Shown one piece after another: positions 48,548 to 56,482 of a DNA stretch of 64,000 nucleotides. The notes under the pieces were generated by a model. The model had not been told where the DNA came from and did no database searches. It worked only from the letters and a program-made list of their open reading frames with translations. Within the stretch, counting starts at the first letter, position 1. Each line of letters starts with the position of its first letter. The stretch is from assembly GCA_017654855.1 (NCBI GenBank), contig CM030336.1:3472001-3536000 (forward strand), written 5' to 3'. The position numbers and the translations under genes were made by a program. Source of the stretch: Podospora anserina. Lineage: Eukaryota.

Positions 48548-51500
48548 TTATCCACGCTTTTCGACCCCAAATAACCCCTATTTTCCTGTTAGCATTTCTT
48601 CATAACATCCACCCATAGAGGCGGGTGAGGTAGGAGAGATATACCAGAAGCGAGTCGAGCTGTTCCGCTCTAATCCCACGCCTGCGCTTTCCAAAGCCTC
48701 CACTGGCTAGTTGAAGTTTTGCCTCTTGTCTAGAGAGAACATTGCTCTGAGAACACATACCATGTCAGGGAATTTCCTTCTGCGATCCATGCCCCAGGAA
48801 GATGTTGGGGTGTACTTACATCTTCAATGGTGTGCTTCACGATATATCGTACTATTGCCACCTGTTCTGTTTGCCCCAGACGTAAAGCTCTGCCAATGGC
48901 CTGGAGTTCAACGGAGGGGTTCCACTGTGGCTCCATGAGATAGATACGACTTGCGACGGCGAGATTGAGTCTGCGAGAAAGAGGTATTAGTTTTGCAGTG
49001 CTTGGGAATGTAGGACTGCTCTGCCCACCCGACTGCCCCTGTTCCCAGTGTCATCAGGAGGACGTTTGCGCCAGATGAAGATCGAAAATCTTTCAGAATG
49101 CGGATCCGCTCACCGAGCGACAGTGAGCCATGGATACAGTAGAACGGAATGCGATAGCTTGTCAGAAGCTCTGATATTAGGTTCAGGGTTTTTTTCCAAG
49201 ATGAGAAAATAATGCTGGGTTATTAGAGGGTCAGCACTTGGATGTTTTTTCTGCATGGGACAGCTTAGGTCATCCGTACCTCTTCTGCGATAAGTGCATG
49301 GAGATATCCTTCAAGAGAGCCAGGAGCTTCGAGGGGTATTGAGTAGGTATTTTTGGAGTTGTATGACTAGTATTGCCAAGAGGAAGAGAATGCTGGACTT
49401 GTCCGACAGGGTGAAGGGGACATTGGCTGTCTGCGGCGTGGTATTGCGGCATACAGGCGCGACAGACAAGGTGCAGACAATCCGGGAGAAGTAGGCCTCC
49501 GTCGGTATCAGGCCTGTCGTTGATGGAATATACTTGCCTAAAACAAAAAGAACAATCTGCCTCGTTGTTCTGCTGTAGGTAACTAAGCACTTCGTCCATA
49601 TCCATTTGGGGCATTGGCGAGGCCGTCCCCGACTCTCGCTTGGGGATTCCGTTGTTGCAAAAAAGTCGAAGTTTGAGCAGTGATTCCAGAACTGTTGAGT
49701 TCAGCTTTCCTCGCCCATGTCCACTCACTGCCCTATCAATCTCACGTCGGCATTGTTGTTCTATATTTTTGTACTCCTGGCGTTCTGCTGGAGTGAGCTC
49801 AACACCTCTCAGTTTCGGCTCTGGATCTGGCAACCCGAGAATATCTCTGGTTCGCCTCAGACAAATGCTTCCCAAAAGCACACGGAGATTCTTGAACCGC
49901 TCCCGTGACTTGGCTGTGGATAAGTTAGCAATATACTTTCGAAACGTTGCTGGGTTTTCGACGCTGGGCACCCTGAGAAAGGATACCAGAGCCCCGAGAT
50001 CATCGACTGCGTTCTGGATAGGTGTCCCTGTTAGACACCATCGATGTTGAGCACGTAGCTCAGCTGTGGCTTGGTGTTGCTTTGTTGACGGATTTCGAAT
50101 CTCATGGGCTGTGGACAACCCAGGTCAGCAAACACAAGGTCAAGCGTGGAGATGGTTGACACACCTTCATCTAGCACGATCCTAAACCAGTCAATGAAAC
50201 GCAAAACAGCCTGCCCTTTACGTAGCTCAGCAGCAACAGTTGCATATGTAGTCAATACAACATCGTTTTCCAGCAGTTGTTTTCGGCTTCTGTCGTCCTG
50301 TCTTCCCTGACCGTGGTGCTTGTGCCACGTAATATAGCCGGGGTAAGTGTGTCTAGGACATGTCAGTTCCAGACAGACATTCTTGTTGTGACAATCTCAT
50401 CACTCACTTCCGAATTTCATCAATCCAACTGTCTATAAGCACTAGAAGCATGTTAGGTTCATGTCGCAGGCGGGGCGCGGTATTCTTTGCTTACGTGAAG
50501 ACGGGCAAACGACTAGGGTTGATCTTGATGCCACCACGGCTGCAGACCTCTGCCCGGGATTTTTGCCTTGAGAAAGGAATGCGCTCGCGCGGCCCATAGA
50601 TCCTGCAATCGTCGACAGGACCACTAGAGTTTTTCCAAGACCCATGTCATCTGCGATAATTCCCCCTTGTACATCCCTCGCCTCTTTGGACCTCCCACCC
50701 GTAATTATGTGCTGATATCTGGGACAACGTCAGTATCCCGATGCCGGTAATAGCGTAAAGGAGCCGCATACAAGCACTCCTCCAAGTCCGAATCATCATC
50801 CTGACACTTCTCCCAGAGACTCATCTCGGCGGGAAGGTCTCCAGTCTCGCGTCTAAGAATAAAATCAAGAGCTTCGGCCTGGTGGCTGTATTACATGTAT
50901 TAGTAATTGACCTTTCAAGCATTCAAAGGAGACAACACACTCGAGCAGGGTCGTTCTGATGATGCTTCTGTCTGCCACAGACTTAGCAAGGATGCTATGA
51001 TATGATAAAGAGTTGAGAATGCTATTGATCTCCGCAGTATCGTTGGTGGGCTCGACCTCGTTTTGCATCACTCTTTTAATTGGGTCGTTTGCTGGGGAGT
51101 GCGAATTGTGAGACTGGCTGTTGTGAAGGGCGATGGGGGTCTCAGAAACCTCTTTCCCGAGAACCTCTTCTAAATGAAGATAATGAGGATTGTAGTAAGT
51201 AAAGCCGTCAAGCCCGAACTGTGGTTGTTGCAGGAAAAGTTGCGCCTTGGACAGAACTCTACCAACATCAGCTGCATGTCGTCGGCGACCGTATATGTTG
51301 AGATCAAAGTTGACGACGGCCGACATCCTTTCTCGCTCCCAGCGACGCATCATCCTCACCCACTCCTCATATGAGATGAAGGCCTGCAGACGTAATTCTA
51401 CGTCGCGGGAAAAGGCTCGAAAGTGTTGACACACTTTCTTGTTTAGAACGGCAAACTTCAACCCCTGAAAGTCGAGCGCATAAAAGGCGCCTTGCTCAAG

Positions 51501-51930
51501 AATATCAAAACACTGGAATGGTGAGAAGGTGGCATCATAACGGATAGGAGGTTGTGTCCGCAGTTGAGCCTTCAAGTCTGGTATCTGGAAAATGTGAGCA
51601 TTCCTGGTTTGCACTCATACAATAGTGGCTTTATACACTTCCAAAGCAAATATCTGCTTCATCGACAGTATGCGTTGTGGTGCTGATCACGACATTAGCC
51701 TCGAGATTGAGGTGTGCAGCGGTGGTATCCCACAGTTCAGGTGACTTCCCGGCCGGCTGATAGCTCGTGTGTGGATATGCGTCGCCATCATATTGCCCGT
51801 CGAGCAAAGGATCGTACTGTGGTTCAATGTGTTGGCGTATCGCATGAGACTGATCACATTGCCAAACTGCGTCAGGCTCCGTGTCTTGATGGTCATTTGC
51901 GAACGGATACGGCCTCTTGGTAGGAAACAT
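48548..51930 (-). CDS. SNF2-family helicase with RING finger (Rad5/Rad16-like), multi-exon
   Basis: IIADDMGLGKT, TLVVCPSS, VVLTTYATV, WFRIVLDE|AHEIRN, WCLTGTPIQN; RING CSFC..CLHLVCRAC..CPLH; LLMTLGTGAVG|LNLAVASRIYLMEPQWNPSVELQAIGRALRLGQ. Frame breaks coincide with probable introns. Predicted ATG 51930, stop 48548. Confidence 0.88.
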
Positions 51931-52232
51931 TTTGACAACAACAAAGATTGTTGGCAGGAGCGACGAGATGGTATAACGATGTGAAGTGCTGAATCTTGGT
52001 TGGATGGTGAGTTGTGATGTGTGGCTGGGGCAATCAGCTGAACACTGCCTCAACAGGCAGCTTGGCAGTCCCGCTTGCTGGCAAGCCGCAAGGCAACTGA
52101 TATGAAGCGCGGACCACTGCAATGTTGTCTGAAAAGAAGCAAGTACCTTCGGGTAGCTTTCTTTCATTTTAAACTCTTGCAGACAATTGCCGTCAGAATC
52201 AAGATCAAGCCACAGCACCCTCAGCAATCAGG

Positions 52233-55200
52233 ATGGCGGCGTCATTGGCTAAGGCCACGGCTGTCACGATGGCCGTGGCAGGGCTTGGAGCGAATGATGT
52301 TCATCCGGGAGCTCCGTTTGAACAGGCGCTTGAGCAGTTCAAGAAGGGGCTACGACCAAAGCATCGATCGACATTCCAAACAACCACGCTTCCCGATCTT
52401 CTTGCAGCAATTGACAAAATTCAGAAGGAGCAGCACTCCAGTCGACGACTTCAAGCCGTTGGACGATTGAAGCCCACTCTTGAAGCGCTTAATCAATTGG
52501 GCAAGGTCGTTGAGACGTTTACAAACACATCAGAATTTGTCGCTTTTGTCTGGGTGAGATTGCATGAGATCTGCGACCGACTCAATTGGCCTGCTAATAT
52601 CTCAGGTACCCAGGGACCATTGAAGTTCTTGATTCAGGTTCTAGCAATCTATCCTTGGTCTTTGTTCGTCTTGCTGACGGGGAAATAGATTGGTAGCTCC
52701 TTTGTGGAAGCATTCACTGAGCTCCTTAGTATCTATGAGAGTCTTGGAGAGGAGCTGCCGCTTGTCCAACAGTACGAAGCCATTTTCTCGAAGGATTCAG
52801 ACATGAAGAGGGTCCTGGCCTATCTCTACAAGGACGTCCTGGAGTTTCATCACCGGGCGTTGAAGTACTTCCAGCAGCCGAGTATGCGTTCATTTCTTAC
52901 TCCGCCCACAAAGCGTCTATCTTCTACCTGGGGTTGTATGGTTGTGCACTAACAATGCCAAACCCATTCAGTGTTGAAGCAGCTATTTCAGGCGACCTGG
53001 AAAACTTACAAGTCTCGGTTCGACGATCTGATCAACGGCATCAAGAGGCACAGGGAACTAATTGTTTATCACGCCAATTTGTTACGTATCAAGGCATCCT
53101 TAGACGACAGACGCAACATAGACCAGCAATTCAGCCAGATCGCCGGCGCTGTTAACCAGGCCAGCCTGTCTATCAAGGCATGTTTGGATGAGCGAAAAGT
53201 CAGAGACCAACAGCTCAAGGAGATGGCTGATGCCGAGAGCAACAGAAAGCTTCGCGAGTTGCAGGGGTGGCTGAGGGCCAGCAATGTTGCCAATGACCAA
53301 CATGAGTTCTGCAAGCTTCGAGGCGAATACCCAGGTACAGGATCATGGTTACTGGATAATCCAAAGTTCAAAGAGTGGTTTGAAACACCCTGTCAGCTGA
53401 TGCCTCCAGTGTTGTGGCTCAATGGTATTCCAGGTGCAGGTCAGTGTCAGAAAAGGAGCCATCATTTGCCTTACGCTGCTGACTTCTTCAAAAGGCAAGA
53501 CAATTCTCGCTTCTTTAGTTGTCGAAAAGGCCCAGCAGCTCAACCCCCCTCCGGCCGTCTTGTACTTCTTTTGCAAACATGGCGACAACGAACGAGACAA
53601 TTTTGTCTCCATCGCGCGCAGCTTCCTCTCTCAACTTCTTCCGTATAATCGAGATATACTGCTTCCATACTATCACGATAAATATCAGAGTAGCACGGAG
53701 GCAGTCCTGGACACCCGAAGCATCATCGAAGATTTACTCAAGGTGCCCATTCGAAATTTCCCGCACGTGTACATCATCCTGGACGGGATTGATGAGTGCC
53801 CGAGGAAAGAACGCGACATCATAGCCTCCTGGTTTCGCGAACTTGTTGAGGACCTTCCACAGAGTAATCCCACACAAATTCGATGTCTGTTTGTGAGCCA
53901 AGAAGATGGGGTAGCACGAAAGGACTTTGCGGGTGTTTCTGTGATCAAAATTCGAAGCCAGGACAACCTGCGCGACATTGAACAATACAGCGCCAAGTGG
54001 GCGATCGACATCCAGAAGAAATTTGAGCTTCCCGACACCAAGCGAGAATCGATCGCAAAGCTCATTGTTGACGCTGCCGGAGGTGAGTACAGTATTCAAC
54101 GCCAAAGTCCAATCGCTAACTCACCATCTAAGGCATGTTTCTACTTGCCAAGTTAATTTCCACCAACCTTCTTCATCAACTTGATGTCGAGGAGTTGGAA
54201 TATGAGCTTGAACCAGGACGATTCCCGCGCGAGATCAATGCTGCGTAAGACTCCTAACCTTCAAGTTGAAAGCGCGGGACAAGTAATTGCTGACGTCTGA
54301 TTTCTGTTTACAGTTACTCTCGAATTATCGTGAGAATATTCGACCATGTGACCGAGTCGGAACAGCACGGGAGTAGGATGCTACTGAGCTGGCTGGTTTG
54401 CGCCAAACGGTCCATGAAGTGGCATGAGATCCAGGGCGTGAAGTCCATTGACTTGGAAACAAAGTCGGTAGATTTCCAACGCTTGCGGTTTCGCGTTGAC
54501 TCAAAAGATCTTTGCGGATCGCTCGTTGAAATCCGGTCCGACGGGACGGTAGAACTTGTTCATCTGACCGCTAAACTGTAAGATCCCTATGTCCCCATTC
54601 CGTCTTACCACTCATGCTTCTAACCTTGTTCAAGCTTTCTTATCAGTGAAAAACATGTCAACCCAGCGCGAGGAGAATTGCAACTAGCTTCTCTGTGCGT
54701 CAATTATCTCAACTTTCCTATCTTCAACGATGAGCTTGAACCCAAAGAGAAGCATTGTCTCATCCTTAATGGGTCCTACGCGTTCATGGACTATGCCATT
54801 GTTTACTGGGTGCGGCATCTTGAGGCTAGTTTGGCATCTCTGGAAAAAGACGGTACCGATGCGCGCGATATTTCCGAGACCCTAGAAGATTTTATTGAGC
54901 TTCACTACATCAATCCAGCCACTCACTTTCCCGTCTCACAAGGAAACGCTGCAAGACTTCGCTGCTTTGAGGATCTGGATTGTCATGACCGACTGCAGCA
55001 GGCAGTCATATCGACACGAAAGCAGCTTACATTCTACGGTGAGATGAACAAAGCCGAGATTGCCCTCGACCTTGTGGACATTGTGGAGAGTATTCGAGCT
55101 GCACTTGAAAGGCTGCTGCTAGGGATCCAGAACGGGGATGGGGTGGCAGCCAAGCTTGAAAAGCACTATGGTTCTAACCTCTTCAAATGTCCCAGGCTCA

Positions 55201-55904
55201 GCTGCAAATTCTTCACGAACGGGTTTGCAACCGCTGAGCGACGGAACCAACACCTTGGAAAGCACCAGAGGCCTTTTCGATGTGCCATTGAGGGTTGTTT
55301 GAGTGGAACCACCGGTATGGCGTCGGAGAAAGAGCTACAAAAGCACATGAAGGAATCTCATGGCGGGTATCAGTCTCACGACGAGTTTCCAGACAACGAT
55401 GAAGTATATCGGAGTCTCCAGCCACAGTTATCCATAACCAACTCCGGCAATCAGACAGGTTTGGTAATTCAAGAGCCTACCGTGGCGGAAACGACAACAA
55501 CTGAAGCACCTGAAGCCCAAGACCCAGCATCTGATAATGTCGCTCGCGAAGTGATAGGACATCAACGGCAGCAGAGTAATAAAAGACAAAAGATTGAGTA
55601 CATATGCTGGTTTTGCTACAAAGTCTATAACCGCAAATTCAACCTCGACTCACATCTTTTAACTCATAGCGAGGACCGGCCTTGGAAGTGCGACCTCTGC
55701 ACCAAAGCCTTTGCGCGGGAAAGCGACTTGAAGAGACATCGGCAAGGCCATGATGAAGGGAGCCATGTTCCGTGCCAAGGGTGTGGCAAGAAGTTTGCAC
55801 GCCAGGATACATTGGCGAATCACCACAAGTCAAAGTTGGGGAAAAGGTGCTTGTCAGCCTTGAATTTGCAAAACCATGCTGAAGAGTCAACTCCATCGGC
55901 GTAG
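52233..55904 (+). CDS. NACHT NTPase (fungal NLR-like) with five C-terminal C2H2 zinc fingers, multi-exon
   Basis: Helical N-terminus (VAFVW|GPLKFLIQ), YPGTGSWLL, Walker A WLNGIPGAG|KTILAS, VLYFFC, Walker B YIILDGIDEC, VELVHLTAK, YAFMDYAIVYWVRHLE. Two fingers near 55190-55360 and three near 55600-55850. Confidence 0.88.
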
Positions 55905-56320
55905 AACTCCCAGCACACAAACTGTACAAAATGTACCGCGGCTACCTCAATCAGAGGCCTGGCCGCGGGATCGTATTCCTAGTTCGCCATGTCAATATTA
56001 AGCTGATCCCTTACCAAATAACATCGGCATAACCCGAATTCATGATGAGCAGAATGGGTGTGTTCAGGTATCACTCGTAGCCCTCACAAACACCACGCAC
56101 CAAAGGTCTGTTACTGCAATCCCAGCCCATCCTCTGCAACATCCAGACGACGTTGCATCATATCACATGTTTCAAGCGCGTATCATGGAAGGAATTTTGC
56201 CTTCACCAAAAGTCCCTCGGTCAAAAAGGGGGAAGCTACGAAATGCCAAGCTGGCCACTCGACACATGCCGCTTATTAAGCCAACAGCTTGACGAACCAA
56301 TCACGCAACAAATGACGCAC

Positions 56321-56392
56321 GGTTGTATAGTGTAGCGGTTATCACTCCGGATTCTGATTCCGGCAACCCCGGTTCGAGTCCGGGTACGACCT
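56321..56392 (+). tRNA. tRNA-Gln (anticodon CTG)
   Basis: Acceptor GGTTGTA/TACGACC, anticodon arm CCGGA-TTCTGAT-TCCGG, T-loop GGTTCGAGTCC. 72 nt, no intron. Confidence 0.95.
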
Positions 56393-56482
56393 CATCCTTT
56401 CGCCTATTCTTTTGGGCCCAGATCGCCGGCGATTTTGACTTTTTTGATGTTGGCACCTTTGCCACAAAATATTTGAGACACC

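Follow-up and report, generated by a model that had tools for sequence, protein, structure and literature searches.

A conserved NACHT protein of Podospora anserina with a Crz1-type zinc-finger triplet: a candidate NLR-type regulator at DNA

Bacterial MalT/AfsR-type regulators of the STAND class (signal transduction ATPases with numerous domains) and the animal NLR CIITA link a nucleotide-binding oligomerisation domain (NOD) to the control of transcription. In MalT-type proteins, the NOD and the sensor are followed by a C-terminal DNA-binding domain; CIITA does not itself bind DNA. The plant protein RRS1 is a NOD-like receptor (NLR) that has a C-terminal WRKY DNA-binding domain, keeps its leucine-rich repeats and works with a paired helper NLR. 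Fungal NLRs are numerous, and almost none has a known ligand or output. We analysed a 64-kb stretch of the Podospora anserina genome, referred to as the window, which contains PODANS_5_8000 (Pa_5_8000), the gene of a NACHT protein that ends in three C2H2 zinc fingers resembling those of the transcription factor Crz1/CrzA. Pa_5_8000 is unusual in having orthologues across the classes of Pezizomycotina, in being the most induced STAND gene of the Podospora incompatibility reaction and in bearing a DNA-binding "sensor" end of the rare Crz1 type. What is at stake is whether NLRs include proteins with a direct action at DNA, or whether decoys made from transcription factors, as in plants, are also used by fungi.

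C2H2 fingers have been described on 34 Sordariales NLRs, where they are mostly C-terminal and never stand beside canonical repeats (PMC12258605, PLoS Genet 2025). In the portions of that paper available to us, one example NLR has three tandem fingers, and NLR zinc fingers are discussed as possible integrated decoys or binding domains. The Pa_5_8000 protein belongs to the same architecture class. The terms Crz1, calcineurin and DNA-binding each have 0 occurrences in the main text of PMC12258605, and the same portions describe no conservation outside Sordariales. In Table 3 of PMC3689799, Pa_5_8000 tops the STAND genes up-regulated in het-R/het-V incompatibility (93.5-fold), with its N-terminal domain entered as "Unknown" and its C-terminal repeat as "None detected". 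Zinc fingers are not mentioned in PMC13449251, and the literature searched by gene name and finger motifs yielded no account of a Crz1-type nature of NLR fingers. The architecture class, that is, C2H2 fingers on Sordariales NLRs, and the induction of Pa_5_8000 were therefore already published. What is new is that the fingers are of the Crz1 type, that Pezizomycotina at large conserve the gene and that its contact residues are frozen, along with a corrected gene model. We tentatively propose that Pa_5_8000 encodes a conserved STAND/NLR-type switch which works as a signal-gated regulator at DNA, a reading that the points below may well overturn.

The gene model was assembled from same-orientation open reading frame (ORF) fragments upstream of the finger-coding frame. 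This frame, 54624-55904 (+), is a 426-residue open stretch (P0001). Its translated end reproduced exactly the finger string quoted in an earlier, sequence-only reading of the window, and the segment given there for the fingers, 55599-55853 (+), is in frame and spans all three of them. The whole coding region (52233..55904, +) has 8 exons (52233-52553, 52614-52637, 52689-52881, 52972-53439, 53495-54082, 54133-54244, 54314-54577 and 54635-55904) and encodes 1079 aa in one open frame, with GT-AG borders at all introns and the stop codon at 55902-55904. Its product is identical to a stored 1079-aa protein (P0327) and agrees with the PODANS_5_8000 protein at every aligned position.

To compare the model with transcripts, we used contigs from four sequencing runs of four studies. 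The runs are not recorded as RNA and were taken as RNA-derived only because their contigs are without introns; 14 runs contained 0.77-0.87 of the sampled words, as expected from intron loss. The joints of introns 3-7 (five of the seven) were present in spliced contigs of all four runs, and those of introns 1 and 2 in three of the four. Every splice joint was GT..AG and lay at the coordinates of the 8-exon model. In three runs all seven joints were found on single contigs, which were 3460-3877 nt long, started at 52000/52117 and reached about 56008; overall, the RNA contigs had their 3' ends at about 56008-56175. Splicing joins the last exon to those of the NACHT part, so that it is not a separate transcript. 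As this exon already starts within the helical domain behind the winged helix, a separate gene for the fingers is ruled out. A single mRNA covers the NACHT and finger parts, and the fusion proposed in the sequence-only reading is real.

In one run (X1), a contig retained introns 1 and 2 (52196-52881) and had introns 3-7 spliced, which reflects either intron retention or unprocessed RNA. The reference protein of PODANS_5_8000 (P0322, 1059 aa) is without three stretches, GPLKFLIQ, GKTILASL and FLIS, all of which are present in the 1079-aa model supported by spliced contigs. They map to 52614-52637 (a 24-nt micro-exon encoding GPLKFLIQ), 53440-53502 (GKTILASL) and 54578-54646 (FLIS). The Walker A lysine sits in GKTILASL and is thus present only in the RNA-supported model, which corrects the reference model by restoring it. 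In each of the models of P. comata, P. pseudocomata, P. pseudopauciseta and P. pseudoanserina, between one and three of the stretches are missing or are replaced by an insertion.

The predicted protein starts with a Goodbye-like/DUF7708 domain, which is followed by NACHT, a winged helix and a further helical domain; two atypical fingers come next, and a disordered linker leads to the finger triplet. The NACHT-type NTPase core (aa 301-470; 53334..53898, +, with the intron 53440-53494 inside) matched the Pfam families NPHP3_N (E 2e-34, aa 301-470) and NACHT (E 8e-7, aa 326-455). It contains the Walker A motif GIPGAGKT (aa 331-338, 53424-53502), which is split by the intron, and the Walker B motif YIILDGIDEC. 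The winged-helix domain (aa 590-662; 54375..54650, +, with the intron 54578-54634 inside) was recognised as GPIID_WHD (E 1.6e-7). The domain after it (aa 663-835; 54651..55169, +) was modelled by AlphaFold as helical with a predicted local distance difference test score (pLDDT) of >87, and its mean pairwise identity within the family is 0.44. Pfam detected no WD40, ANK, TPR or HEAT repeats in the whole protein or in aa 658-835, and up to E 10 it assigned no family to the helical domain or to the two upstream fingers. Compared with fungal NACHT-type NLR/STAND proteins, the NTPase core, the winged helix and an N-terminal effector-type domain are present, and the repeats are absent.

The N-terminal helical domain (aa 29-215; 52317..53078, +, with introns within the range) was assigned to DUF7708 (E 5e-19, aa 84-215 of P0327). 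Its match to Goodbye was weak and sub-threshold (E 0.004, aa 29-144, 18 bits against a cut-off of 24.8). AlphaFold, run on the family alignment, predicted an all-helical bundle with a mean pLDDT of 84.8. With this model, Foldseek against PDB gave a best E of 0.11, and the VIA wide search gave a best Z of 8.8, to designed helical repeats, its other matches being coiled coils; no MLKL/HeLo row was among the matches listed by either search. The Goodbye-like domain is described as an NLR N-terminal domain of unknown function in the available parts of PMC4986451 and PMC9815663, and the latter predicts for the Goodbye-like superfamily a four-helix core in common with HeLo/MLKL.

The AlphaFold model of the C-terminal part (mean pLDDT 83.9) contains the helical domain, the two atypical fingers, the linker, three beta-beta-alpha fingers and then a helix. 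The atypical fingers, designated ZFa and ZFb (C-x4-C-x15-H-x3/4-H; 55188..55361, +), were modelled with a pLDDT of 88-96, and their ligands are invariant or nearly so in an alignment of 41 rows; the sequence-only reading was silent on them. The linker of ~50 aa (55431..55580, +) is acidic, Thr-rich and predicted to be disordered, with a pLDDT of <50 over residues 270-319 of P0001. Reading of the sequence directly before finger 1 revealed a basic cluster, KRQK (55581..55592, +), which could be a nuclear localisation signal; the family consensus around it is RxRQTEFxC.

Fingers 1 and 2 of the triplet (55605..55667 and 55689..55751, both +) have the spacing C-x2-C-x12-H-x3-H. The helix residues are R/F/N/S at positions -1/+2/+3/+6 of finger 1, the ligands of which are invariant, and R/D/R at -1/+3/+6 of finger 2. 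Finger 3 (55773..55850, +) is a Crz1-type C2HC finger, C-x2-C-x12-H-x8-C, from which a 9-residue loop between the cysteines is deleted in Podospora. Most family members have an extended third finger, FVCxGxLxNGxxWGCGKxFARADTLxxHHKSxxGQxCI, that is, C-x11-C ... H-x8-C. Pfam zf-C2H2 matched the triplet in P0001 (E 8e-10) and in three stretches of P0327 (E 1.2e-9, best at 1008-1029), and AlphaFold modelled three beta-beta-alpha units with a pLDDT of 88-96. Foldseek matched the C-terminal model to DNA-bound C2H2 arrays (such as CTCF, Aart, ZFP568, BCL11A, KLF4 and the consensus finger 1mey). A sequence search of solved structures returned only generic C2H2 arrays (such as ZNF568, Aart, CTCF, WT1 and EGR1), and the ESM Atlas search returned generic C2H2 clusters.

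We searched a profile of 45 positions of the extended third finger against 1.84 billion representative proteins, and 1601 proteins were obtained at E <= 0.001 and 480 at E <= 1e-10. Most of the best 150 were proteins of 75-960 aa matched end to end, and the sequences examined had three fingers; the proteins returned were mainly fungal. The Erysiphe protein P0258 bears the name "C2H2 finger domain transcription factor crzA". P0213 of Saccharomyces mikatae (673 aa) contains PIISIQ, and its finger region fits the Crz1 pattern given in the sequence-only reading. PIISIQ is the calcineurin-docking motif of yeast Crz1 and is listed as a Crz1 domain in the available part of PMC9604740. Of 18 non-NACHT representatives checked for their names, a single one is called crzA; another is entered as "DNA-binding transcription factor", and the others are hypothetical or unnamed. 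A member of the NACHT family, P0012, carries the automatic source name "Transcriptional regulator CRZ1". The label Crz1 for the clade of 57-100 rows described below is based on the single crzA name, PIISIQ in P0213 and the automatic name of P0012.

The profile of the family triplet scored Crz1-type proteins at 127-133 bits end to end and poly-zinc-finger proteins at 27-68 bits; family members with a complete triplet reached 97-148 bits and the P. anserina copy 109.5. In BLASTP, the P. anserina triplet was 40% identical to crzA (105 columns, E 6e-24) and 43% identical to P0213 (97 columns, E 2e-24), with a 9-residue gap in both alignments, and the Hypoxylon member P0014 was 52% identical to P0213 (107 columns, E 1e-33). 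A word-index search with the region gave 3 matches among 10 candidates, none of which was Crz1. When longer proteins were allowed, the triplet search gave 1626 matches, of which the 120 listed were all poly-zinc-finger proteins, dominated by animals.

From these comparisons, we classify the triplet as a DNA-binding domain of the Crz1/CrzA type, as the sequence-only reading had proposed. Common to the family and to Crz1/CrzA are three C-terminal fingers, a third finger with C-x11-C spacing, a G.L..G..WGC loop and an H-x8-C end. Also common are R/K, Y/F, N and S at -1/+2/+3/+6 of finger 1, R, D and R at -1/+3/+6 of finger 2, and R and D at -1/+2 of finger 3. In contrast, the NACHT protein has T instead of A at +3 and N/K instead of R at +6 of finger 3, and the Podospora copy keeps H-x8-C without the 9-residue loop. 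The Pa_5_8000 protein further differs in the NACHT switch upstream of its fingers. A PxIxIT-like motif (P.I.I[TQESD]) was not found in P0327 and was found in 1 of 34 NACHT-family proteins, versus 37 of 57 Crz1-type proteins. A serine-rich region is absent, judged by serine content as a crude proxy (6-7% in 3 NACHT-family proteins versus 12-13% in 8 Crz1-type proteins). The type of DNA-binding domain is thus all that the Pa_5_8000 protein is predicted to have in common with Crz1, and the connection to calcineurin-Crz1 signalling drawn in the sequence-only reading was not borne out.

Phylogenetic trees of the triplet were constructed at two levels of stringency; the alignment is short and several NACHT rows have long branches. 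A quick tree of 163 triplets (99 columns, with a poly-finger outgroup) contained a clade of 48 rows, comprising 34 NACHT rows and 14 short proteins, most of which also have ZFa, with an approximate likelihood ratio test (aLRT) support of 80. A second clade of 100 non-NACHT rows had the same aLRT support of 80, and a few lines, including the NACHT protein P0206, were not resolved. For a careful tree of 96 rows, 14 long-branch rows and the non-NACHT rows from proteins of <480 aa were left out. A branch with a support of 100/100 separated all 57 Crz1-type rows from every one of the 34 NACHT rows as well as from P0175 and the outgroup. A tree constrained to unite the NACHT rows with the Pezizomycotina-like CrzA rows was worse by 42.9 log-likelihood units, with a borderline p value of 0.053 in the approximately unbiased test, so that this arrangement was not formally rejected. 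We read the NACHT triplets as a separate old lineage whose closest known relatives are Crz1/CrzA, and not as the trace of a datable event. The triplet groups with Crz1-type fingers and not with unrelated C2H2 fingers. The origin from a Crz1-type factor suggested earlier is supported in part.

A recent duplication of the resident crzA was rejected as the source of the triplet, since the NACHT triplets do not fall within the Crz1 clade as sampled (100/100) and since the fusion shows conservation across Pezizomycotina.

UniRef gives P0175 (Clonostachys byssicola, 591 aa) the name "master regulator of conidiophore development brlA", but its triplet clusters with those of the NACHT family. This protein also has a pattern like the start of the family's ZFa finger and is probably a truncated model or misleadingly named. 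Seven small proteins of 285-430 aa (P0172, P0173, P0177, P0178, P0183, P0192 and P0203) have a ZFa-like finger, RWxC....CPFYAxGWxSAxALxxHN, with one or two extended fingers of the Crz1 type behind it. These proteins seem to form a further family in which this odd finger is used.

With P0001 as query, 43 matches were obtained among longer proteins, and 33 of them have NPHP3_N together with zf-C2H2 in about 860-1080 aa. By source names, they belong to Sordariales, Xylariales, Amphisphaeriales, Hypocreales, Glomerellales, several Dothideomycetes, Aspergillus terreus and Rutstroemia. Five others have NPHP3_N without a recorded finger, and the remaining five are unrelated poly-finger proteins. One of the five NPHP3_N proteins without a recorded finger, P0038 of Hyaloscypha, has the same ZFa and ZFb, behind which ANK repeats occupy the position of the triplet. 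Together with the lack of Pfam repeats, this agrees with the earlier suggestion that the fingers stand in place of WD, ANK or TPR repeats. The mean pairwise identity among 29 members was 0.61 for NACHT, 0.63 for the winged helix, 0.55 for ZFa-b, 0.52 for the triplet, 0.52 for DUF7708 and 0.25 for the linker. This pattern identifies Pa_5_8000, at the level of sequence, as a constrained orthologue and not a variable lineage-specific NLR. The fusion of NACHT with Crz1-type fingers is described here as an old family conserved in Pezizomycotina.

The position of the fingers and their kinship bear on a second explanation, that of an integrated decoy. Here the fingers would mimic the DNA-binding domain of Crz1/CrzA, an antagonist effector that targets Crz1 would lift autoinhibition on binding or modifying them, NACHT would oligomerise and the Goodbye-like N-terminus would execute cell death or signalling. 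Such a decoy would explain why the fingers are in the sensor position, where a relative has ANK repeats, and why their nearest relatives are the domains of Crz1/CrzA, a host protein that could be targeted. The strong induction of the gene in a nonself reaction (PMC3689799, in its available part) is in line with it, and decoys are among the roles considered for NLR zinc fingers in the accessible text of PMC12258605. However, the members of this old family are orthologues that have 45-63% identity in every folded domain, and the fusion was not acquired in a single lineage. Its triplets branch apart from the Crz1 clade (100/100) and differ systematically from Crz1 at +3 and +6 of finger 3. The finger 3 loop, which is kept in the Crz1-type sequences examined, was lost repeatedly in the NACHT family, which would make for poor mimicry. 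P0327 also has no calcineurin-docking motif and retains no canonical repeats. We consider the decoy explanation unlikely, though one to be taken seriously.

RRS1, through its WRKY domain, is the plant analogue of such a decoy. Like RRS1, the Pa_5_8000 protein is an NLR that bears at its C-terminus the DNA-binding domain of transcription factors of stress or immunity. The two differ in that the fingers of the fungal protein replace the repeats and that the NACHT-finger fusion is ancient and orthologous. A second homologous NACHT gene is not present in the 64-kb window: tblastn of P0327 against it found only the gene itself, a search that an unrelated NLR would escape, and this also speaks against a decoy.

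Across the family, the 12 zinc ligands of the triplet show little or no variation, and all are intact in the P. anserina copy. The DNA-contacting positions were compared between 32 NACHT-family rows and 120 non-NACHT rows, the latter including short family-like fragments; 7 of 159 rows that failed the finger pattern were dropped. In finger 1, all 32 NACHT rows have K/R at -1, N at +3 and S at +6, and the non-NACHT rows have R, N and S in 103, 106 and 103 of 120, respectively. In finger 2, R at -1, D at +3 and R at +6 are each found in 32 of 32 NACHT rows and in 117, 116 and 115 of the 120 others. Finger 3 has R at -1 in 32/32 versus 117/120 rows and D at +2 in 30/32 versus 114/120. Its position +3 is T in 25 of 32 NACHT rows and A in 84 of 120 non-NACHT rows, and its position +6 is N in 15 and K in 11 of 32 NACHT rows and R in 89 of 120 non-NACHT rows. 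Positions -1, +3 and +6, named in the sequence-only reading for a test of positive selection, are therefore frozen family-wide in fingers 1 and 2; positions +3 and +6 of finger 3 depart from those of Crz1, with +6 alternating between N and K. Mainly because the contact residues of fingers 1 and 2 are frozen, the module probably still reads DNA, and we consider retention of DNA binding by the triplet a likely property of the protein.

These residues also bear on a third explanation, in which the fingers would serve as a nucleic-acid sensor. A DNA or RNA ligand, such as misplaced, foreign or damaged DNA, would be bound by the fingers and would trigger NACHT oligomerisation and the N-terminal output. 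Consistent with this are the sensor position of the fingers, a canonical DNA-binding fold predicted to sit on a flexible tether and the induction in a cell-death or nonself response. Invariant base-contacting residues imply, on the contrary, one specific sequence and not a generic pattern, and no precedent was found in the available text of the fungal NLR literature searched. This explanation seems improbable to us.

The signal-gated regulator at DNA proposed above would work as follows. The flexibly tethered triplet would bind a GC-rich site related to the Crz1 element, which is 5'-GNGGCKCA-3' according to the part of PMC9604740 available. The half of the site read by fingers 1 and 2 would be as in Crz1, and the part read by finger 3 would differ, in keeping with T instead of A at +3 and N/K instead of R at +6. 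Nucleotide-dependent oligomerisation of NACHT would be coupled to this binding. The protein would thereby act as an NLR-type signal-gated DNA regulator in a nonself or stress response, with a logic like that of bacterial MalT-like STAND regulators. The single transcript, the domains, the age of the family, the ligands, the contact residues, the structure, the basic cluster and the induction support this reading. As in STAND-type transcription regulators, a NOD module and a DNA-binding domain are in one polypeptide. The likeness to the MalT/AfsR type and to CIITA lies in the coupling of the NOD to transcription control; the DNA-binding domain is helix-turn-helix in the MalT/AfsR type versus C2H2 in the Pa_5_8000 protein, which has an extra Goodbye-like N-terminal domain.

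A more specific form of this reading is that Pa_5_8000 and its orthologues are eukaryotic NLRs that recognise specific DNA sequences directly, as nonself-induced, NACHT-gated transcription factors reading a Crz1-related promoter element. We regard this form as possible but doubtful. If true, NLR sensing would be wired straight into the calcium and cell-wall stress regulon without calcineurin, and, going by the literature searched, no NLR before it would have had a sequence-specific DNA-binding output of its own.

Several results weigh against a regulator at DNA. The Crz1 site GNGGCKCA occurs 10 times in the 64-kb window versus 18 expected, with 0 matches in the promoter of the gene. The fingers occupy the NLR sensor position, and in the tripartite logic of NLRs the C-terminus is the sensor and the N-terminus the output. 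The Goodbye-like N-terminus, from a superfamily reported to have the MLKL/HeLo core (PMC9815663, available part), points to this end, and not DNA binding, as the putative output. The 9-residue loop of finger 3 is gone in Podospora, Cercophora, Triangularia and a few others, leaving C-x2-C. Among five Podospora species, 12 of 87 sites are variable in the triplet and 10 of 75 in the linker; the corresponding values are 8/292 for the N-terminus, 18/350 for NACHT and the winged helix, 8/173 for the helical domain and 1/65 for ZFa-b. In P. comata, 8 of 24 private changes fall in the triplet (aa 976-1062, 55590-55850; Fisher p 0.0004). Seven of these eight alter charge or histidine content, and none is at a ligand or at -1/+3/+6. 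Such variability of the triplet in Podospora is less what a conserved transcription factor would show than what relaxed constraint or the surface of an arms race would produce. No other observation argues as strongly for a role as bait or in protein contacts; for the decoy explanation, it amounts to fast evolution of surface positions outside the contact residues in the Podospora complex, above all in P. comata.

The same variation, together with the loss of the finger 3 loop in Podospora, would be expected if the fingers had no role at DNA and served protein-protein or intramolecular contacts, in autoinhibition or as a scaffold, or if they were drifting in this genus. We see only a slim chance of this, as the 12 ligands and the contact residues are intact in P. 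anserina and invariant family-wide, and the fingers are modelled with high confidence.

The triplet is thus variable within the Podospora complex, yet strongly constrained across Pezizomycotina.

Two neighbours of the gene were noted. A tRNA-Gln gene (anticodon CTG; 56321-56393, +) lies about 420 bases 3' of the stop codon, just past the ends of the RNA contigs. Upstream, on the minus strand, the neighbouring gene at 49270-51614 (-) resembles an SNF2-family helicase with a RING finger, by the look of its ORF translations alone.

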